Of a stretch of DNA of 52,863 bases, positions 230 to 45,932 are shown piece by piece; position 1 is the first letter of the stretch; each line of letters opens with the position of its first letter. The notes beneath the pieces are model-generated. The model was not told the origin of the DNA. It ran no database searches and was given only the letters and a program-made list of their open reading frames with translations. Position numbers and translations under genes: made by a program. Origin of the DNA: Clostridiales bacterium. GTDB taxonomy: Bacteria > Bacillota > Clostridia > Peptostreptococcales > Anaerovoracaceae. The stretch covers positions 1-52,863 of the forward strand of contig JAAYSU010000135.1 of assembly GCA_012523915.1 (NCBI GenBank), in the 5' to 3' direction.

Positions 230-350
230 AGAGCAAAGTAGAGTAAATATTGTGCGCTTGTCTTTATTTAGACATGTAGTGTCATGGGATGGGATGTTGC
301 CCATGAACGAAAAACTACGGTTTGCGATACAATATTGCGTCCGCTGCTGC
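230..350 (+). promoter_or_regulatory. THF (tetrahydrofolate) riboswitch aptamer (folT motif)
   Basis: Read directly: AAGUAG near the 5' end. P2 pairs AAUAUUGU (246-253) with ACAAUAUU (329-336). Hairpin CAUGGG (283-288) / CCCAUG (300-305) has loop AUGGGAUGUUG, followed by ACGAA and a closing GCGUCCGCUGCU. Architecture and loop match the Eubacterium siraeum THF riboswitch as I remember it. It sits about 70 nt upstream of a folate ECF S-component gene. The expression platform is not resolved. Confidence 0.85.
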
Positions 351-9263: not shown

Positions 9264-10553
9264 TTAGTTTAAAGACGCAAGTATTCTATTTTTTGATTTT
9301 TCAACTTCATGTTTAACTTTTTCTATATCTAAAGTTAAGTATTCTCCCTCACGGTAAAGAACCTTGCCATCTACCATGGTTAATATGACATCGCTTCCTG
9401 AGGCGGAATATACCACGTTATTTACTAAGTTATGCACTGGATACATATGTGTATCCGAAATATCCAACACTACTAAATCTGCCTTATAGCCTTCAGCTAA
9501 TTTACCTGTATCGGTTCTTCCTTGACCTAATGCGCCTGCTCTTGTTCCTGCATATAGAGCCTGTTTTGGTGTTACCAAGGTTGGATCCTTATATTTCTCC
9601 TTGTGTAACAAGGAAAAGAATTTAATCTCCTCCAAGTAGTTTAAACTATTGTTGCTTGCCACACTGTCTGTTCCGATAGCTACATTTATACCTTTTTCCA
9701 ACATCCTGGGAACATTACATACGCCACTTGCAAGCTTCAGGTTACTTATAGGGCAGCTTGCCACCGTAACTCCCTTTTCAAAGATTATCTCTATATCATC
9801 TTCCTCGACCCAAACGCAGTGGGCCGCTGTAGTTTTGCTATCAAGAAGTCCTAGATCGTTGAAATACTCTATAGGTGTCTTTCCATGCCTTTCCTTACAT
9901 TCTTCATGCTCTTTTTCAGTCTCAGATACATGTACGTGCATGTTTGCACCAATCTCTTTTGTGAATTCAGCGAACTGGCGGACTATCTTAGGATTGGAAG
10001 TATACTCTGCATGAAGGCTCATGTCAACCTTAATCCTTCCATCGCCACTATTATTATATTTATCGAAAAGTTCCTTGGATTCCTTATATGCGATTAAATC
10101 CTTCAAATCTTGATCGGTAAAACAGGTTAAACCCCTTCCTAAATTGCTTTTTACCCCGCTTTCAAGAATAGCATCTGCCATTCTATCACAAAAATAATAC
10201 ATATCAGTTGTAGAAACTATACCAAATCTCAAGGATTCGGCTATACCTAGCAGGGTAGCATAATATACGTCATCGCCATTTAACTTATCTTCGAATGGAA
10301 AAATTCTATCATTTAGCCATGATTGAAGAGACATGTTTTCACCGTAGCCCCTCATAAGGGTCATAGGTGTATGAGCATGGGAGTTAAAAAAACCACTCAT
10401 CAGTAGTTTGCCTTCACCCTCATATATTTGACCATAGTCCTCCTTGGGCATTTCCGTACCAATATAGTCAATTTTATCTTGTTTTATACCAAGGTAGATT
10501 TTTTCCTTAACTTCTAAATTTTCATCCAATATATTTATATTCTTAAATAGCAT
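9264..10553 (-). CDS. mtaD: Amidohydrolase, 5-methylthioadenosine/S-adenosylhomocysteine deaminase-like
   Basis: Metal-ligand motifs FFNSHAHTPMTLMRG, MHVHVSETEKE, AAHCVW and IGTDSVASNNSLN. Start at MLFKNINIL has GGAGGA upstream; the ORF-track start is over-extended. Confidence 0.8.
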   Translation of the reverse strand: MLFKNINILDENLEVKEKIYLGIKQDKIDYIGTEMPKEDYGQIYEGEGKLLMSGFFNSHAHTPMTLMRGYGENMSLQSWLNDRIFPFEDKLNGDDVYYATLLGIAESLRFGIVSTTDMYYFCDRMADAILESGVKSNLGRGLTCFTDQDLKDLIAYKESKELFDKYNNSGDGRIKVDMSLHAEYTSNPKIVRQFAEFTKEIGANMHVHVSETEKEHEECKERHGKTPIEYFNDLGLLDSKTTAAHCVWVEEDDIEIIFEKGVTVASCPISNLKLASGVCNVPRMLEKGINVAIGTDSVASNNSLNYLEEIKFFSLLHKEKYKDPTLVTPKQALYAGTRAGALGQGRTDTGKLAEGYKADLVVLDISDTHMYPVHNLVNNVVYSASGSDVILTMVDGKVLYREGEYLTLDIEKVKHEVEKSKNRILASLN

Positions 10554-10605
10554 GACCTTGTCCTCCATTCGTACAATTAGGATAAAATTATAGCATATAA
10601 ACAAG

Positions 10606-10637
10606 AAAAAATCCACTTGCGCACTGCTTAAGTGGAT
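10606..10637 (-). terminator. Rho-independent terminator after spoVT
   Basis: Stem ATCCACTT / AAGTGGAT (10611-10618 / 10630-10637), followed by a T6 run on the minus strand. Confidence 0.7.
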
Positions 10638-10671
10638 CTCTCACATAATAAGTTTTGACTAAAAGCTATTA

Positions 10672-11223
10672 TTAATTCTCCATCTGTTTTGCAAGAAAAT
10701 CAGCTGCAATCTCAGCCGCTTTCATTTCAATTTCACCCAATGGATTTCCGCTTTCTCTTGAATAAAATATTACTGAACCAATCGGATCACCTTGAGTTAC
10801 TATCGGTACAACTATCTGAGACTTGTAATCCCTGTTTTCACTTTCCTCGTTGGTTATAGGATGAACATTATCTTCCCCTGTTAACAATACGCTCTTCTTA
10901 TTTTGGATTATACGCTCTATCTCGGGACTTATGCGTTTTTCTAAATACTCCTTTTTTGACGTTCCTGAAACAGCTACAATCTGGTCGGTATCTGTTATAA
11001 TAGCGGCATCTCCTAATACACTGTAGGCAGATTCAATAAACTCCCCTGCAAATTGATTTAATTCACTGATCGGCGAGTACTTCCTTAAAATCACACCACC
11101 TTCTCTATCGGTATAGATTTCAAGTGGATCACCTTCTCTGATTCTCATAGTACGCCTGATCTCTTTAGGGATTACAACTCTGCCAAGATCATCTATTCTC
11201 CTTACAATTCCAGTAGCTTTCAT
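10672..11223 (-). CDS. spoVT: Stage V sporulation protein T (AbrB-family regulator with GAF-like C-domain)
   Basis: MKATGIVRRIDDLGRVVIPKEIRRTMRIREGDPLEIY is the SpoVT/AbrB swapped-hairpin N-domain. Length of 183 aa and position downstream of mfd are typical. Confidence 0.95.
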   Translation of the reverse strand: MKATGIVRRIDDLGRVVIPKEIRRTMRIREGDPLEIYTDREGGVILRKYSPISELNQFAGEFIESAYSVLGDAAIITDTDQIVAVSGTSKKEYLEKRISPEIERIIQNKKSVLLTGEDNVHPITNEESENRDYKSQIVVPIVTQGDPIGSVIFYSRESGNPLGEIEMKAAEIAADFLAKQMEN

Positions 11224-11305
11224 TTAAATCCATCCTCTCTTAATCATATACATTTTAGCTGTTATTATTATTTTCCAAACATGGAGTAATATTCGTAGAT
11301 TTTGG

Positions 11306-11338
11306 AATAAAAAAAAGAGCCCGATTAAAGAGCTCTTT
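11306..11338 (-). terminator. Rho-independent terminator after the prsA-like gene
   Basis: Stem AAAGAGC / GCTCTTT (11314-11320 / 11332-11338), followed by a T8 run on the minus strand. Confidence 0.65.
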
Positions 11339-11356
11339 AAAAAAATTTTTCTTATA

Positions 11357-12280
11357 TTAACCTAAATATTCAACGCCAAATTCATTTCGGATCTCAGTAA
11401 TTTTTATATTATACAACTTGGAAATCTCATCATTTTCAAGTTTGTTTTTTATCAAATCCTTAACATCTTCAAAGGACTCTATGCCTTGATTTTTATCAGT
11501 TACCAGAATTATATGGTATCCGAATTGGGTCTCCACCACGTCACTCAACTCGCCCACTTCTAGAGCGAAAGCGGCTTCTTCAAACTCAGGAACCATCATA
11601 TTTCTTCCGAAAGTTCCCAGATCTCCACCATTTGATGCCGTTGCATCGGTTCCGTGTTCAGCTGCCAATTCACCGAAATCGGCACCGTCTTTTAGTTGAG
11701 CCAGAATATCCTCGGCTAACTCTTTATCTTCAACCAATATGTGTTTGGCAGTAACTTCATCTACTTCAAACAGCGATTGATTATTGTCATAAAAGGATTT
11801 TATATCCTCCTCAGCAATCTCAGCCATATCACCTTTCAGTTCGTCTATGAATACTGAACTAAAATATTGACCTAGAAAGAAATTATTTAGAAATTCATTG
11901 GATATTTTATTATCTTTCATGTATGCATTAGCTACTTGGTCCTTCCCAATCTGATCTATTACTTCATCTATATCTTCATTATAGCCTTCGGGTAGAACAC
12001 TTTCGTCTTTCCCATAATACAGCTCTATCGATTTAAGTGATATATAGTCTTCCAAAAGTGTAGCCTCTATGCCCTCAATACTTTCCTCCGGCAAGCTTTT
12101 CAAGTCGATCCCCTGGAAAAAACTGAATAACTGCACATACCGGTCTAATTGTCCTTGGGTAATTTCTTCCTCACCTACTTTGGCGATAACAAGATTTTCA
12201 TCTTTGCTGTCTCCGCAAGCAAACATTGTAAATACCATAGCTACTATTAACAAGCCCACCCATGTTTTCTTAAATTTCAT
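11357..12280 (-). CDS. Parvulin-type peptidyl-prolyl isomerase lipoprotein (PrsA-like)
   Basis: Signal peptide with lipobox TMFAC-G. Parvulin domain AKHILVEDKELAEDILAQLKDGADFGELAAEHGTD...GGDLGTFGRNMMVPEFEEAAF...TQFGYHII. Confidence 0.85.
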   Translation of the reverse strand: MKFKKTWVGLLIVAMVFTMFACGDSKDENLVIAKVGEEEITQGQLDRYVQLFSFFQGIDLKSLPEESIEGIEATLLEDYISLKSIELYYGKDESVLPEGYNEDIDEVIDQIGKDQVANAYMKDNKISNEFLNNFFLGQYFSSVFIDELKGDMAEIAEEDIKSFYDNNQSLFEVDEVTAKHILVEDKELAEDILAQLKDGADFGELAAEHGTDATASNGGDLGTFGRNMMVPEFEEAAFALEVGELSDVVETQFGYHIILVTDKNQGIESFEDVKDLIKNKLENDEISKLYNIKITEIRNEFGVEYLG

Positions 12281-12314
12281 CTATTATATTTCTCCTTCGT
12301 TCCTTAGTAATTAA

Positions 12315-15300
12315 CTATTCAACCATTATACTCTCCTGCACCATATTTGTCAAAAACGAAATGGTTTCAAAAAGTCGATTTTTCCCCATAAGACTTAGCT
12401 TAATAAAGGGCCTGATTCCACCATGGACCAAAATATTATTTCCATACTTTTCTACAATTTTTGATATCATATCCGCCTTCAATCCGTTATCCTCGTTGAA
12501 GCTGAATACCAGCTTTTGTTGCTCCTGATGTATCCTCAAAATGCCGACTTTACTAGCTAGAGCCTTTATTAAAGCAATATCAATCAAGTTCAATGTCTCC
12601 TTCGGTATATCTCCGAACCTATCCAGAAGCTCATCTATAACCTCACTCTTATCGCTTTCATCTTTTATTGATGCAATTTTTTTATACATTTCAAGCTTGA
12701 TTAGTTCGTCTTCAATATAGCTTGAAGAAATATATGCTTCAACTTGAATCTCTACCGAAGTCTCCTCATCAGCTAACCTATCTGTCTTTTTACCTGTGAG
12801 TTCTCTTACTGCATCATCAACAAGTTTGCAATAAAGTTCATAACCGATCATCATCATATGACCATGCTGTTCGGTACCCAAAATGTTTCCTGCCCCCCTT
12901 ATTTCCAAGTCCCTCATCGCTATATGGAAGCCTGCACCGAATTCGGTGAACTCACGTATGGCACGCAGCCTTTTTTCAGCCACCTCAGTCAATACTTTGT
13001 CTTTCTGATACATCAGGTAGGCATAGGCCATTCTATTGCTTCTTCCAACCCTTCCCCTCAACTGATAAAGCTGTGCAAGCCCGTATCGATCTGCATCTAA
13101 GATTATCAGTGTATTGGCATTTGGGATATCTAAACCAGATTCAATAATAGTTGTAGCTACTAAAATATCAATATTATCATTTACAAATTCAATCATTATA
13201 TCCTCTAGTTGCCTTTCGTTCATCTGCCCATGGGCAACCGAAACTCGTGCTTCTGGAACTAAATCCCTTATATGGGAAGCAATCTTTTGAATTCCCCTGA
13301 CCCGATTGAAAACGACATATACTTGTCCCCCTCTGTCCAATTCCCTTTCTATCGCTTCCTTTAAAACATTATCATCCTGTTCCATTACATAGGTCTGAAC
13401 AGGATAGCGTTCTTCGGGAGGCTCTTCTATCAAGCTCATATCCCTTATTCCTACCAGGGACATGTGCAAGGTCCTCGGGATAGGTGTTGCAGATAGGGTT
13501 AATACATCAACGTTTTTTCTAAGCTTTTTAATCTTTTCCTTATGCTGAACTCCAAAATGTTGTTCTTCATCTATTACTAATAATCCCAGGTCATGAAAAC
13601 TTACATCATCTGAAAGCAACCTATGGGTACCTATCACTATGTCAAGTTCTCCTTTTTTAAGCTTATTTATTATACCTTTCTGTTGCTTATCTGTTCGAAA
13701 CCGACTTAACATCTCTACACTAATCGGAAAATCTGCAAACCGCTCTTTGAAAGTATGGTAGTGCTGATTTGCCAAAAGGGTAGTGGGAACAAGCACAGCA
13801 GCCTGCTTGCTGTCCGTAACACATTTAAAAATTGCTCTCGCCGCAACTTCTGTCTTCCCATATCCCACATCCCCGCAAAGCAGACGATCCATAGGTACAG
13901 GTTTTTCCATATCCTTTTTTATCTCTTCAACACAGCGGAGCTGATCAGCGGTTTCCTCATATGGAAACAGGTCTTCAAACTCACGCTGCCAAATGCTATC
14001 CTTTGAAAAGCTATGGCCTCTTTCTGCCTGTCTTGCAGCTGAAAGCTCTATCAAATCCTTTGCCATGTCCTTTATTGCAGATTTTGCTCTCGCCTTTGTT
14101 TTTTTCCAATCACCGCCAGAAAGCTTATTTACTTTCGGCACACTGCCTTCAACACCCACATATTTTTGAATGAGATCCATCTGTTCAACTGGTACATAAA
14201 GAAGATCTTCACCGGCATATTTAATCTTTAGATAGTCCTTTCTTATCCCTTGGATTTCCATCTGTATTACGCCAATAAATTTTCCGACCCCATGATTTTC
14301 ATGAACTACGTAATCTCCGCTACGAATATCGGTAAAGGATTTAATTATATGTCTTTTGTCTTTCTTTTTCTTAGTTTTTCTCTTGGCTTTTACGAATATA
14401 TCGTTATCGCTAAAAATGACGAGCTTTTCTTCCGGAAACTCCATTCCTGAAGATAGGGCACCATGTTTTACTGAAACTTTTTCTTGGAGTCTGCACTTTC
14501 TTACGAAGTGCTGCATATTTTCTACTCTATCCTTTGTAGAGCAGCTTATTGTAATATTATAGCCCTGATTAGCGTACCTTGATAGCTCCGCCTCAAGGAA
14601 ATCCATCCTGCCGCTAAATACTGTAGCCTGTTTTGAGACAATATTAATAATTGCATCTAGTCGATCTACACCTTTAATTTGCTTTTGGAAGGGAGTAAAT
14701 AAAAGGATCGGACCCCTTTCGTATATCTTGAAAAAATCATCCTGGCCTGAAAAGGCTCCAAAATCATCAGGTGCAGCTTCTCCGCGCTCTAAGAATACCT
14801 TGAAGTCCTCCCTATACTCAGTCTCTGAAAGTTCAAGGGTATCCATTACTCGTTCTGGATCATCAACTATTATCAAACCATCATCCTTCATATAGTCCCA
14901 GACCCTTTCTGGTCTTTCGTAGAAATAGTGGATATAGTTTTCTAATAGCTGAATATTTGTCCTGGTTTCAATGTACTCTAAAACGCGACCCATACGGTCT
15001 TTTAGCCTTTCCTTTTTTTCTATGGGAAGTTTCTTCATGAATTTTTCATAGTGAGATTTTATACGAGTAGCTGCCTGTTCAAATAAATGCTCTGATTGAA
15101 CTATAAGCTCTGCAGGAAATATCTCTATAGTATTCAAACTGCTTATTGATCTCTGCGTAACAGGATCAAAAAAGCGTATGGAATCCACTTCAATATCAAA
15201 AAATTCGACACGGCAAGGATAGTCTTTATCTGGAGGAAATACATCTAAAATTCCTCCCCTTATGCTATATTGGCCTTTTGCTTCTACAGAGCCAACCCTC

Positions 15301-43261: not shown

Positions 43262-43349
43262 TGGCGGAGAGTGTGGGACTTGAACCCACGGGGCTTTCGC
43301 CTTACTCGCTTTCCAGGCGAGCTCCTTAGCCACTCGGTCAACTCTCCGC
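43262..43349 (-). tRNA. tRNA-Ser (anticodon GGA), CCA encoded
   Basis: The reverse complement GCGGAGAGTTGACCGAGTGGCTAAGGAGCTCGCCTGGAAAGCGAGTAAGGCGAAAGCCCCGTGGGTTCAAGTCCCACACTCTCCGCCA folds as a class II tRNA. Anticodon arm is CTCGC-CTGGAAA-GCGAG, with a long variable arm and T-loop GTTCAAGTC. Confidence 0.9.
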
Positions 43350-43550
43350 AAATCACATACTTTTATAATATACAATATTTTTAGATTAAAATCAATATCA
43401 AAAGATGAATTTCACAATTTACCATCTAGAGAAGTCAAACATATGATAAATATTTTTTGTCATTCGTATTTTCTTTTCTCTTATTTGCCTACACATAGAT
43501 TCATATGTGCATTTATAGCCTACTTCTATATTAAGATGGTTTGATTATAA

Positions 43551-43579
43551 TAGACAAATTGCAAAAAATCTACTATAAT
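43551..43579 (+). promoter_or_regulatory. Candidate sigma-A promoter of tRNA-Glu
   Basis: TAGACA (43551-43556), a 17-nt spacer, and TATAAT (43574-43579), ending 16 nt before the tRNA 5' end. Confidence 0.5.
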
Positions 43580-43595
43580 AAAAAAGTCTAAACGA

Positions 43596-43670
43596 GTCCC
43601 GTTGGTCAAGTGGTCAAGACGTCGCCCTCTCACGGCGGAGTCAGGGGTTCGACTCCCCTACGGGATACCA
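43596..43670 (+). tRNA. tRNA-Glu (anticodon CUC), CCA encoded
   Basis: GTCCCGTTGGTCAAGTGGTCAAGACGTCGCCCTCTCACGGCGGAGTCAGGGGTTCGACTCCCCTACGGGATACCA has a cloverleaf with anticodon arm TCGCC-CTCTCAC-GGCGG and T arm AGGGG-TTCGACT-CCCCT. It is very similar to the B. subtilis tRNA-Glu backbone but has CTC instead of TTC. Confidence 0.9.
43622..43670 (+). repeat. Direct repeat copy 1 (att-like), the 3' two-thirds of tRNA-Glu
   Basis: 46/49 identical to 45000-45048. Weaker similarity continues about 40 nt downstream of both copies. Confidence 0.85.
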
Positions 43671-43903
43671 ACGTAAAACGCCTTAAACCAAGTTTTATCA
43701 ATGGTTTCAGGGCAAGAGCTTGGGAGTAGGTTTTGGGTGAGAGTTTTGTCCTTACCAGGGAGGCCCCTTCTCTTCCTCAGGAACGCTTCGCATCCTTTTT
43801 CCGTCTGCAACTGCAACTTGGCTATATCAGAGAATGCCTGATTTCCCTATCCTTTCGACTTTGCCCTAAATTCCACAGGAAATATTTTAGCGGCTTTTTG
43901 CCG

Positions 43904-44104
43904 CTAAATGTCAATCCCGATCCGGGTATATACTTCCTTGACCGTCTTCATGATCTCTTCCCAGTTTATGCCCTCTGCATAATCGAATATCTCTTGGTAG
44001 TTCTTCCACAAAACCTTCATCTCGGGGTCCTGAGGACGTAGTGTCTCAAGGACATATATGTCATAGAAGTCCAGGTCCTTAAGCTGTCTCGATGTCCGGA
44101 TCAT
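43904..44104 (-). pseudogene. Internally deleted AbiEii/DUF1814 nucleotidyltransferase toxin remnant
   Basis: The 66 codons keep a family-like N-terminus (MIRTSRQLKDL), the KDxYDIYxL motif and the C-terminal W..Y....YAEGI.WEE segment. The roughly 200 residues of nucleotidyltransferase core are missing. The start overlaps the abiEi stop (ATGA). Confidence 0.55.
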
Positions 44105-44697
44105 GACAGCAGCACCTCCACGTAGCGGTGGATGATCTTTTCCACAGAAAACATCTTCGCGTAACGCATTAGAAGCGGAATATTCTTCTCCTTGCTCCTC
44201 ATGTAATCCCTGACCGCCGCCTGCAGGGCCTGTCTGTCTACCGGCTGTCGGCTTCGCACAAGATCGCAGATTGTCCGCTCCACATTGTATACCCTTACCG
44301 TGTGGCCGGCCGGCGTTGTCGCTTCCGTCAGCCCCACCGTAAACAGCTCCCTTTTGACTTTGAACACTTTCACTCCTTCGCGCAATAAAACTGTCGCGTT
44401 GGATCCGTACGGCAGCGAAATCGAATAACGCAGCGGCTCCCGCTCTGCAAAGCCGAGAAGATATAGCGCAGTCTCGTGCGAAAATATCCCGGATGGGTAC
44501 CGCGTTTGAATGACATGAAACTCATCATCCCAGTAATCGGCCGATTTGTATAATCCATTGGCTACCCGCTCAAGGCCATTCTTTCGCACATAGTCGCCTA
44601 AATACGCCCTCGAAATTCCGGCTTTCACCGCGTCCGAAGTTTTTAAATATCCTTTGTTCTTTTTTACCAGAAGGTCAAGTTTGTATTTCATACTCAT
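44101..44697 (-). CDS. AbiEi-family antitoxin/transcriptional regulator (type IV TA, abortive infection)
   Basis: LLVKKNKGYLKTSDAVKAGISRAYLGDYVRKNGLERVANGLY is the AbiEi_4-type N-domain, followed by the conserved C-domain (IFSHETALYLLG...ERTICDL). Start is taken at ATG 44697; the ORF-track GTG at 44712 is also possible. Confidence 0.75.
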   Translation of the reverse strand: MSMKYKLDLLVKKNKGYLKTSDAVKAGISRAYLGDYVRKNGLERVANGLYKSADYWDDEFHVIQTRYPSGIFSHETALYLLGFAEREPLRYSISLPYGSNATVLLREGVKVFKVKRELFTVGLTEATTPAGHTVRVYNVERTICDLVRSRQPVDRQALQAAVRDYMRSKEKNIPLLMRYAKMFSVEKIIHRYVEVLLS

Positions 44698-44999
44698 GTT
44701 ATTGCTCACCACCTTACACTTACTCTCTAATTATGTACCATTAGAGATTGAATGTAAAGTATTTTTAAAAAATTTTTGCGATTTACACAAATTTAGATAT
44801 ATGAACGTTTTATTTTTACCCGTCATACACGGTACCGTCCGTATTCAGATCCTGTCGTATACCATTTGTGGTCGTCAGGGGTTATCATTCCCAAATCGCA
44901 GTCCATATATCGGGGCATGGCCACAGCAATGTCATTATAGAAATCTTTGTAGTCATGTGGGAGTTGCTCTTGTAGGCATTGAAAAATAGCCAATCATTA

Positions 45000-45048
45000 T
45001 CGCCCTCTCAAGGCGGAGTCAGGGGTTCAACTCCCCTACTGGATACCA
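45000..45048 (+). repeat. Direct repeat copy 2 (att-like), a displaced 3' fragment of tRNA-Glu
   Basis: TCGCCCTCTCAAGGCGGAGTCAGGGGTTCAACTCCCCTACTGGATACCA has 3 mismatches to the intact tRNA. No 5' half is present, so it is not a functional tRNA. Confidence 0.85.
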
Positions 45049-45054
45049 GAACTA

Positions 45055-45094
45055 AAAACGCCTCAACCAATTGTTTAAAAGGTTTAGGCGTTTT
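45055..45094. terminator. Bidirectional terminator (native tRNA-Glu terminator; also downstream of rnfB)
   Basis: Stem AAAACGCCT / AGGCGTTTT (45055-45063 / 45086-45094) with inner AACC/GGTT pairs. T runs are present on both strands. Confidence 0.7.
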
Positions 45095-45122
45095 GTGTTA
45101 TAAAACCTTATTTATCCTTTAT

Positions 45123-45932
45123 CTAATTCTTCTTTATCCTCGGGTACACATGTATTACCTTTGTCGGGCAAACCTTTGAACATAGGGTGCAGTTCGTACA
45201 TTTTTCATAGTCGATAACGGCATGGTTATCTATTACATGTATGGCATCGAACTTACATTCCTTTACGCAACGATTACATGCTATGCATCCTATTGTACAG
45301 ATCTGTCTTGTTGCCTTAGCTTTATCAATTGAGCTGCAGCCTACTACAACTCGGGTTTTTTCAGGTACTATTTCTATCAAGTAATTAGGACAGGCCTTAG
45401 CACATAGGCCACATCCTACACATTTTTCCCTATCTATTACAGCGATTCCATTTTCTATCTTAATCGCATCATAATCACATACAGCTACACAGTCGCCAAA
45501 TCCTAAGCAGGCAGTTTGACATTTTCCTCTGCCCTTATAGAACAATTTGCTTGCTTGGCATGTGGGATATCCTTGATAGTCCATCGAATAGCTAGTTCTA
45601 TCTAAGGTCCCCGAGCATTTCATAATGGCTATTTTACCTGCCGCTTCTTCAAATTCTAGCCCTAGAATTTCGCTGATATCTTTTACAACCTGATTGCCTC
45701 CGGGTGTACATAGATTTGCTTTTGTATTTTCCCTATCTGCTACAAGGGCATTTGCATAATCTTCACATCCAGCAAAACCACAAGCACCGCAATTAGCACC
45801 AGGTAAGGCTTCTAATACCAATAATGCTGTCTCATCTGTTTCTACAGCCATAAATTTAGCTGCAATTGTAAGGATCACACCGGCAATGAGTCCGATGAGA
45901 GCAACTAATAATATGGGCGTAATATATTGCAT
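45123..45932 (-). CDS. rnfB: Rnf complex subunit B (polyferredoxin)
   Basis: N-terminal TM segment, the CGACGFAGCEDYA motif, and several CxxCxxCxxxCP 4Fe-4S motifs. Confidence 0.9.
   Translation of the reverse strand: MQYITPILLVALIGLIAGVILTIAAKFMAVETDETALLVLEALPGANCGACGFAGCEDYANALVADRENTKANLCTPGGNQVVKDISEILGLEFEEAAGKIAIMKCSGTLDRTSYSMDYQGYPTCQASKLFYKGRGKCQTACLGFGDCVAVCDYDAIKIENGIAVIDREKCVGCGLCAKACPNYLIEIVPEKTRVVVGCSSIDKAKATRQICTIGCIACNRCVKECKFDAIHVIDNHAVIDYEKCTNCTLCSKVCPTKVIHVYPRIKKN

Follow-up and report, generated by a model that had tools for sequence, protein, structure and literature searches.

A decayed AbiE islet without an integrase in the 3′ half of a clostridial tRNA-Glu gene, probably the remnant of an integrative element

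Introduction

Between an intact tRNA-Glu gene and the rnf operon of a Clostridiales bacterium (Anaerovoracaceae) lie 1.3 kb of DNA of aberrant composition, bracketed by two copies of the 3′ half of the tRNA and carrying the antitoxin gene of an AbiE module together with the stump of its toxin gene. How did this islet come to lie there, and how did it come to be shared with another species? We analysed it within the window, by which we mean the whole stretch of 52,863 nucleotides (nt) that makes up contig JAAYSU010000135.1 of assembly GCA_012523915.1 (forward strand); positions below are those of the window unless another locus is named. A sequence-only reading of the window had proposed a foreign element lodged in the 3′ half of tRNA-Glu, devoid of an integrase and reduced to an AbiE remnant, and this core agrees with the composition of the insert and with an empty site that we found in a sister species. 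We consider it likely, with a probability of roughly 0.7, that an integrative element once entered the 3′ half of tRNA-Glu(CTC) by a single crossover and that the islet is what remains of it.

Results

The islet is framed by a duplicated tRNA half, two unequal flanks and the end of the rnf operon:

43596-43670, + strand: tRNA-Glu(CTC), intact, the presumed regenerated target gene on the attL side (ARAGORN; Rfam 61.6 bits)
43622-43670, + strand: proximal copy of a 49-nt direct repeat, starting where the anticodon stem does and ending with the CCA (repeat search)
43671-43711, + strand: foreign tRNA-Glu 3′ flank, the first two thirds of another organism's terminator with the T run missing (metagenome contigs)
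45000-45048, + strand: distal copy of the repeat and presumed attR fragment, a decaying 3′ half displaced from the host tRNA-Glu (repeat search)
45050-45099, both strands: native bidirectional terminator, originally common to tRNA-Glu and rnfB (fold z-score −4.8 on +, −3.5 on −)
45123-45932, − strand: rnfB, which closes the host rnf operon and bounds the site on the right

The repeat search aligns 43622-43670 with 45000-45048 at 46 of 49 positions, and on direct reading of the sequence the repeat starts where the anticodon stem does, at tRNA base 27. Its mismatches, three in all, fall at base 38 in the anticodon loop, at base 56, the T-loop purine, and at base 67 in the acceptor 3′ strand, as had been read from the letters; the T at base 67 of the distal copy would mispair with C5 of the acceptor stem. 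The distal copy lacks a 5′ half and reaches 21.6 bits against Rfam, below threshold, in keeping with its earlier description as a fragment and not a gene. The tRNA and its 3′ fragment lie on the same replicon and both on the + strand, the structural arrangement that Islander looks for, and attL and attR are both retained, the latter decaying.

Weaker similarity runs on for about 40 nt beyond the repeat, blastn aligning 43622-43711 with 45000-45088 at 84% over 93 columns. The sequence-only reading had seen this extension past both copies and taken it for a duplication of the host terminator; the extension is real, the duplication is not, the proximal flank being a foreign allele as described below. 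Its observation that the distal copy alone keeps a clean stem and T run holds: the hairpin at 45050-45099 is a strong one (−19 kcal/mol, z −4.8) that leads into a T run and also terminates the convergent rnfB, whereas the proximal 43671-43730 folds weakly (z −1.45) and has no T run.

The insert proper, taken as the 1,329 nt between the repeat copies (43671-44999), shows the foreign composition that Islander also looks for. Its guanine-plus-cytosine (GC) content is 45.8%, against 37.6 ± 2.1% in equal-sized segments elsewhere (z = 3.9), its tetranucleotide divergence is greater than that of every background segment, and the AbiEi gene reaches 50.4% GC, with 60% at third codon positions (GC3) against 33 ± 2.6% in 17 host genes. 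The abrupt change of composition that had been noticed between the repeats is thus visible as a discontinuity in GC, GC3 and tetranucleotide profiles alike. Within the insert we recognise:

43712-43885, no strand: left non-coding part of the islet, no recognisable gene (174 nt; no family match)
43886-43908, − strand: intrinsic terminator of the abiE operon (9-bp stem, T-rich tail; −19.4 kcal/mol, z −4.4)
43904-44104, − strand: collapsed AbiEii, a 66-codon in-frame remnant (PADLOC AbiEii 8.6e-07; BLASTP against the AbiEii of locus L095)
44101-44697, − strand: AbiEi, intact, type IV antitoxin and transcriptional repressor, 198 residues (PADLOC 1.5e-68; PF13338)
44711-44760, − strand: abiE promoter-like site with an inverted repeat, candidate AbiEi operator (−35 at 44758, −10 ending at 44730)
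44761-44999, no strand: right non-coding part of the islet (239 nt; a degenerate 56-codon open reading frame inside)
44823-44993, − strand: that degenerate 56-codon open reading frame (no homologue)

Domain library searches found no recombinase, excisionase or replication domain in any open reading frame (ORF) of 43671-44999, and profile searches of all insert ORFs return the inventory given from sequence alone, namely AbiEi, a collapsed AbiEii and non-coding DNA, with no integrase. The ORF at 44823-44993 was considered as the remnant of an integrase or excisionase and rejected; even when read through with the help of the sister-species sequence it had no match in Pfam, NCBIfam, PHROGs, tblastn against plasmids or a search of 5.8 billion proteins, and we regard it as non-coding debris. 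The insert DNA has no match in phage and plasmid collections by BLAST in distant mode, and an exact 33-mer from the AbiEi/AbiEii junction is absent from GTDB genomes and from IMG/VR.

The antitoxin of the module is complete. An upstream GTG at 44712 would give it 203 residues. Residues 5-202 of AbiEi fall on positions 3-195 of the 198 of the PADLOC profile (1.5e-68), PF13338 scores above the Pfam cutoff and PF09407 weakly, the protein has the antitoxin architecture of an N-terminal winged helix and a C-terminal antitoxin domain, and a search returned 2,461 homologues. The AbiEii remnant aligns by BLASTP only to residues 1-11, 192-204 and 241-283 of the 283-residue L095 AbiEii, which indicates that the toxin gene was hit by two in-frame deletions. 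In L095 the PF08843 nucleotidyltransferase domain spans residues 34-268; about three quarters of this domain are gone from the 66-residue product, which has no Pfam match and is no DUF1814 nucleotidyltransferase toxin. The AbiE system of Dy et al. depends on the AbiEii nucleotidyltransferase toxin (PMC3985639), and having lost it the module cannot act in toxin–antitoxin fashion or in abortive infection. Of the anti-phage cargo read from the letters, then, the AbiE identity stands and the activity does not.

The organisation of the described AbiE systems (PMC3985639, PMC7319586) is nevertheless recognisable: the locus reads as bicistronic, the AbiEi stop and the start of the AbiEii remnant overlap in an ATGA that can be read from the sequence, AbiEi is full-length and the putative promoter carries an inverted repeat. 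It differs from them in that AbiEii is reduced to 66 residues with most of DUF1814 gone, leaving an orphan antitoxin-repressor and a mini-ORF. AbiEi autoregulates abiE through inverted repeats in the promoter (PMC7319586), and the 21-nt inverted repeat found here, with arms at 44711-44731 and 44740-44760 that are 81% complementary and overlap the promoter-like site, would fit as a candidate AbiEi operator; its right arm differs at five positions in the sister species. AbiEi appears to be transcribed, as four metatranscriptome assemblies each hold one contig within 43923-44514 and none elsewhere in 43400-45300, and one of these RNA-derived contigs crosses the AbiEi/mini-AbiEii junction. The gene is intact in this species and its sister, and the ratio of non-synonymous to synonymous substitution rates (ω) of 0.37 between them shows it to be under weak purifying selection.

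Independent contigs from JGI, ENA and Logan, over 15 in number, show this arrangement at about 99.8% identity, and so does one NCBI genome, GCA_900198705.1; the carrier contigs come from biogas, digester and landfill metagenomes. The sister species (contigs L011 and L098), whose rnfB is 86-87% identical to that of the window at the DNA level, is occupied too. Its distal fragment has three substitutions and a 16-nt deletion, and indels of 52 nt and 12 nt set its right non-coding part apart from that of the window; its two contigs end inside the islet, at window positions 44280 and 44073. A variant strain, L002, has the distal fragment, with C38 kept, and about 50 nt of the right end of the islet, and diverges at about 44951, beyond which (6950-9894 of L002) AbiEi gives way to fragments of an ISL3 transposase and of a sigma-54 activator and to an IS3-type helix-turn-helix gene; no tRNA-Glu lies within 3 kb.

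The sequence-only reading had proposed that related genomes be compared for an empty site, with tRNA-Glu followed by the terminator and rnfB. JGI metagenome contigs were searched for a junction of the tRNA 5′ and 3′ halves followed within 35-55 nt by a host-type terminator, and one contig, L097 (LSQX01173252.1), was found to have this very order of an intact tRNA-Glu, directly the terminator and then rnfB. L097 belongs to the sister species, and no empty site was found within the window's own species. Compared over 2,222 nt, L097 and the occupied L011 are 99.87% identical, so that within the sister species some strains have the islet and others lack it.

The origin of the proximal flank is indicated by a further bacterium, organism Y, which we met when metagenome contigs were compared with 43671-43830: contigs from four runs (X9, X14, X17 and X18) match 43675-43708 and then diverge. 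Organism Y contigs reach a depth of 7.6-95x in these runs, against 2.5-5x for this species, a difference of about 10x that makes organism Y the more abundant of the two. They include a whole tRNA-Glu with its own TATAAT-containing upstream region, unlike that of the window; this tRNA shares G56 and G67 with the proximal copy, and its flank agrees with 43671-43711 over the first 41 nt, one extra A apart. Ahead of the matching stretch the contigs read ...GGTTCGACTCCCCTACGGGATACCAACGTA. Past 43708 they continue GGGCGTTTTTT..., an intact terminator, also read as GGGCGTTTTTTATTTTTTG..., which completes a proper terminator. In run X9 a 6.8-kb contig of organism Y begins at window position 43679 and goes on with GGGCGTTTTTTATTTTTTGTTTTTGGGATA. 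The window leaves this allele mid-terminator, after 43711, and since the organism Y locus matches it up to that point the proximal flank is a foreign allele and no decayed host terminator. Base 56 is the foreign G in the proximal copy and the host A, as in L097 and L002, in the distal copy, which places the crossover 5′ of base 56. Pattern scans and BLAST gave no matches to organism Y in GTDB representative genomes, IMG/VR, phages or plasmids. Run X9 also holds a third allele of the tRNA-Glu flank, ...ACGTAAAA GCGCCTCAAACCAAGTGTTTTCAACAGGTT..., and its presence beside organism Y indicates that tRNA-Glu with this type of terminator is a conserved locus across several co-occurring relatives.

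Comparison of the window with the sister species dates the islet relative to its hosts. AbiEi differs by 9 synonymous and 11 non-synonymous changes, with a synonymous divergence (dS) of 0.066 and the ω of 0.37 given above, against a dS of 0.84 for rnfB and 0.67 for rnfA (ω 0.05 in both), so that synonymous change is about tenfold lower in AbiEi than in the rnf genes (Fisher p = 5e-19). In 100-nt bins AbiEi is 92-100% identical, the right non-coding part 87-93%, and the rnf genes, past the conserved 3′ end of rnfB, 82-90%. With a dS of 0.066 against 0.84 the islet copies share a far more recent ancestor than the genomes do, and the islet therefore moved between the two species after their split. 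Such an arrangement in close relatives, if of host-like composition, had earlier been regarded as pointing to an old tandem tRNA decay; the sister species does share it, but on these values it is not old, and the sharing indicates horizontal spread and no old vertical inheritance. The simplest reading of the low dS, of an empty strain 99.87% identical to an occupied one and of the decayed fragment in the latter would be that the islet entered at least one of the two species as a block, displaced fragment included. No recombinase of its own is detectable in either species' islet copy, as far as the contigs reach, and the block would have travelled either with a recombinase supplied in trans or through homologous recombination in its conserved flanks of tRNA and terminator.

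We also surveyed 79 genome loci of about 20 kb each with AbiEi homologues of 44-68% identity. A co-oriented tRNA ends 90-1,350 nt upstream of AbiEi in 14 of the 79 (binomial p = 7.5e-16), with Leu, Ala, Tyr, Thr, Ser, Lys and Val among the adjoining tRNAs, and tRNAs elsewhere in the roughly 20 kb occur in just three. One of these loci, L140 from a Coriobacteriia metagenome-assembled genome (57% GC), is a clean second example of an AbiE-only insert at another tRNA: around its positions 9834-11464 the order is pgi, tRNA-Ala(TGC), AbiEi, a full AbiEii, a repeat and a nuclease-domain gene, the repeat being an exact 26-nt copy of the tRNA-Ala 3′ end and the insert having 1.53 kb, 47% GC and no recombinase. 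The earlier suggestion that database searches would bring up a related element using tRNA-Glu, and the parent's integrase, was only partly borne out: neither was found, and this AbiE pair with its tRNA-Ala repeat is the nearest analogue.

Repeats around AbiE pairs are not confined to tRNA halves, as long imperfect non-tRNA repeats surround the pairs of L165 (144 nt, 91%), L171 (73 nt, 96%) and L144 (189 nt, 86%). With these included, flanking repeats were counted at 8 of 68 AbiE pairs and at 4 of 163 control positions (p = 0.007), a difference that is only suggestive, two of the eight having been missed by the automated scan and added by hand. Integron attC sites were considered as a source of repeats and set aside as inapplicable to the window, where the repeat is a tRNA half. 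Toxin loss with the antitoxin kept is common in this AbiE clade: by a crude count the ORF after AbiEi is shorter than 150 codons in roughly a quarter of the 79 loci, and L096, the closest homologue outside the two species, has a 73-residue AbiEii stump. A crude regular-expression screen, an unreliable method, found no tyrosine recombinase in the AbiE loci, and Pfam matches of the first large ORF after ten AbiE modules comprised one serine recombinase (L123), the rest being ordinary or defence-like.

Individual loci of the survey have features of their own. The L123 enzyme, of 334 residues (11442-12446, − strand; Resolvase and Recombinase domains), begins 9 nt after AbiEii, in a locus where a tRNA-Leu ends 338 nt upstream of AbiEi, and is the sole recombinase beside the AbiE pairs sampled. 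In L142 (9078-9739) tRNA-Thr(GGT) is followed, before AbiEi, by two 43-nt fragments of its own 3′ end, 293 nt apart, and in L124 (8913-9343) the same tRNA is followed by one such fragment of 51 nt; each fragment has a short inverted piece of the anticodon arm, and they have the look of scars left by one integration after another. In L125 (11630-12913) and L165 (12831-14150), two unrelated AbiE loci, the genes that follow have Schlafen/AlbA_2 and HATPase_c_4 domains, and this could be a co-travelling defence-like gene.

Around the islet the genes are housekeeping ones: a FabA-like dehydratase, an old-yellow-enzyme-type flavin oxidoreductase, HtpG, inosine monophosphate dehydrogenase (IMPDH), the rnf operon and threonine synthase. 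To the left of tRNA-Glu, whose promoter-like site ends 17 nt ahead of its start, lie:

43262-43347, − strand: tRNA-Ser(GGA) (ARAGORN and Rfam)
43551-43579, + strand: tRNA-Glu promoter-like site, TAGACA, 17-nt spacer, TATAAT (11 of 12 consensus positions)

In a 146-kb JGI contig of the same species (L099, 11236-15979) about 4.7 kb of insertion-sequence genes lie between tRNA-Ser and tRNA-Glu, with Pfam matches to IstB_IS21, an IS110-type transposase, the Mu-transposase C-terminal domain and rve; the insertion corresponds to 43395-43445, about 50 nt of window sequence being duplicated at the junctions, and the many frameshifts of this contig make it probably a long-read assembly. The sole deposited genome with the locus (GCA_900198705.1, FZPS01000048.1; L001/L091) is a scaffold of contigs joined by N runs, in which unrelated genes and not rnfA stand ahead of rnfB, the islet is cut at window position 43762 and gene order is unreliable. 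The interval from rnfB to tRNA-Ser is variable across the family: among the relatives L012, L014, L016 and L017, whose RnfB is about 71% identical, it has no tRNA-Glu and holds a membrane permease-like ORF of 423-452 residues in three and non-coding DNA in one, and in L012 a transposase-like ORF adjoins tRNA-Ser. Far from the islet and unrelated to it, 237-348 (+ strand) is a tetrahydrofolate (THF) riboswitch aptamer (Rfam RF01831, 63.6 bits).

Discussion

The history that we favour would begin with an incoming circular element that carried a tRNA-Glu segment of its own, with one end at the start of the anticodon stem and the other 41 nt beyond the CCA, derived from the tRNA-Glu locus of another bacterium. 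A Campbell-type crossover with a circle bearing such a segment, base 27 to +41, predicts a host/foreign mosaic of the two copies, the proximal one host to the left of the crossover and foreign to the right, the distal one the reverse. The insertion would have rebuilt tRNA-Glu from the host 5′ part and the 3′ part of the element (43596-43670), followed by the foreign flank to 43711, and would have displaced the host's original 3′ half and terminator 1.38 kb downstream (45000-45099). We infer that a tyrosine integrase made the original insertion and that a larger prophage or island was whittled down to the islet. In the course of later decay two in-frame deletions cut the toxin to 66 codons, and any recombinase would have gone; the 16-nt, 52-nt and 12-nt indels between the islet copies of the two species show decay to be ongoing. 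Since the split of the two lineages the islet has spread between them, probably through homologous recombination or a recombinase acting in trans.

Several observations weigh against this history. The empty site comes from the sister species only, on a single contig that starts exactly at tRNA base 1, and in more distant relatives (RnfB about 71% identical) rnfB and tRNA-Ser have no tRNA-Glu between them. Neither an integrase or excisionase nor a fragment of one was found in the islet, nor a parent element in the phage, plasmid and IMG/VR collections, and the closest AbiEi outside the two species is only 66-68% identical. At 43640-43641 organism Y reads AA and both window copies read GT; the true donor would then have been a relative of organism Y, or else the crossover fell between bases 47 and 55, that is in the T-arm, a poorer fit to a repeat that starts at base 27. 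The RNA-derived contigs, finally, have a depth of 2-3, at which DNA carry-over is possible.

The islet might instead owe its place to homology, as a block of foreign tRNA 3′ segment, AbiE DNA and tRNA fragment that was put together in another lineage and entered in a RecA-dependent manner, either by a Campbell-type single crossover of a circle in the tRNA-terminator segment of about 90 nt or by a double crossover in the flanks, with no site-specific recombinase at work in this host. A long (about 90 nt) and imperfect (84%) repeat is what a diverged homologous segment would leave, the proximal copy does hold another organism's allele, and the islet crossed species though it has no detectable integrase; whole-block import is also the easiest way to arrive at the occupied allele of the sister species, in which a badly decayed fragment stands beside flanks 99.87% identical to the empty strain, and the AbiE pairs of L165, L171 and L144 lie within long imperfect repeats that are not of tRNA origin. 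Homology does not explain, however, how the first direct-repeat-flanked structure arose or why the distal copy begins exactly at the anticodon-stem base, and 49-90 nt at 84-94% identity make a poor RecA substrate. As it overlaps with the integrative-element history where later spread is concerned, it is a rival for the original event alone, and for that event we think it unlikely.

Nor would an integration be needed if tandem tRNA-Glu genes had stood here of old, with foreign DNA coming between them and deletions removing the 5′ half of the second and the terminator end of the first; the empty site would then be a secondary deletion by recombination between the copies. The similarity that runs past the tRNA into both terminators would suit this, as would the free-standing tRNA-Glu with a proximal-type terminator in organism Y and the arrangement in the sister species, but a fragment boundary exactly at base 27 would be a coincidence and the species split is about ten times older than the islet. 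The tRNA of L097 is intact while the L011 fragment has three substitutions and the 16-nt deletion, so that L097 cannot be derived by recombination between such copies; no relative was found with two complete copies, and the distant relatives lack any tRNA-Glu at the site. The empty site, the foreign 41-nt flank and the start of the repeat at the anticodon stem favour insertion over tandem decay, which we judge to be very improbable. A chimera built from collapsed tRNA-like repeats during metagenome assembly is suggested by the many foreign tRNA-Glu-like contigs that pile onto 43596-43670 in metagenomes and by the gapped scaffold that is the only deposited genome with the locus; it is effectively refuted by over 15 independently assembled contigs (JGI, ENA, Logan and NCBI) in which these junctions recur at about 99.8% identity, among them contigs of 14 kb and 146 kb that cross both junctions.

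The AbiE pairs of this clade could be seen as minimal, recombinase-less, att-flanked mobile cassettes that use integrases in trans to settle 3′ of various tRNAs. Cross-species sharing, the foreign tRNA allele, the enrichment at tRNA 3′ ends and tight direct repeats lead to this idea, which we put forward tentatively and consider doubtful. If it were true, cassettes would carry a piece of their previous host's target and the toxin–antitoxin pair would be their own stabiliser. It is at least as likely that addictive toxin–antitoxin genes are the last part of an island to be lost.

The sublocation of attP within tRNA genes, with an anticodon-centred class, was reportedly set out by Williams in 2002. 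A regenerated tRNA gene with a displaced 3′ fragment marks tRNA-integrated islands, and 2,083 islands with anticodon-centred attP have been recorded (PMC4383910). The islet is like the islands of the Islander type in its regenerated tRNA, its displaced 3′ fragment of the same orientation, its foreign composition, the empty site in a relative and a repeat that begins at the anticodon stem, as in the anticodon-centred class. It is unlike them in that 43671-44999, between tRNA and fragment, holds no integrase gene such as Islander requires, in its size of just 1.3 kb and in a homology that extends 41 nt past the tRNA as another organism's allele. With cis-mobilizable elements (CIMEs) it shares att-type flanking repeats, the absence of recombination and transfer genes, a move between lineages and a position 3′ in a target gene that would let a second element integrate beside it; it departs from them in its degenerating attR, with three mismatches here and the 16-nt deletion in the sister species, and in having no neighbouring integrative and conjugative or integrative and mobilizable element (ICE/IME) and no tandem accretion. 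By structure, then, it would be a decayed, att-flanked, integrase-less island remnant resembling a CIME.

At defence hotspots without mobility genes a lone defence or toxin–antitoxin module occupies a conserved spot and varies between strains and species. Most of them keep no record of arrival. The islet is like them as a module alone next to a tRNA, variable and with no mobility gene, and unlike them in that its att-type duplication and foreign tRNA allele record how it came.

Annotation should not count this locus among the working AbiE defence systems. AbiEi may persist as a self-repressing orphan antitoxin, either nearing loss or kept to neutralise incoming AbiEii toxins. As an ordinary decayed genomic island at a tRNA gene the islet is of a kind already well documented, and its value lies in the whole history that can be read from one locus, in which an element would have brought in half of the tRNA of a different host, the antitoxin has outlasted the toxin, and the remnant, with no recombinase of its own, would have passed from one species to another. 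It provides a concrete case of how small defence and toxin–antitoxin modules may end up alone, without mobility genes, at hotspots flanking tRNAs, and with the recurrence of AbiE-only islets at tRNA genes it raises the question whether AbiE pairs are moved in trans.

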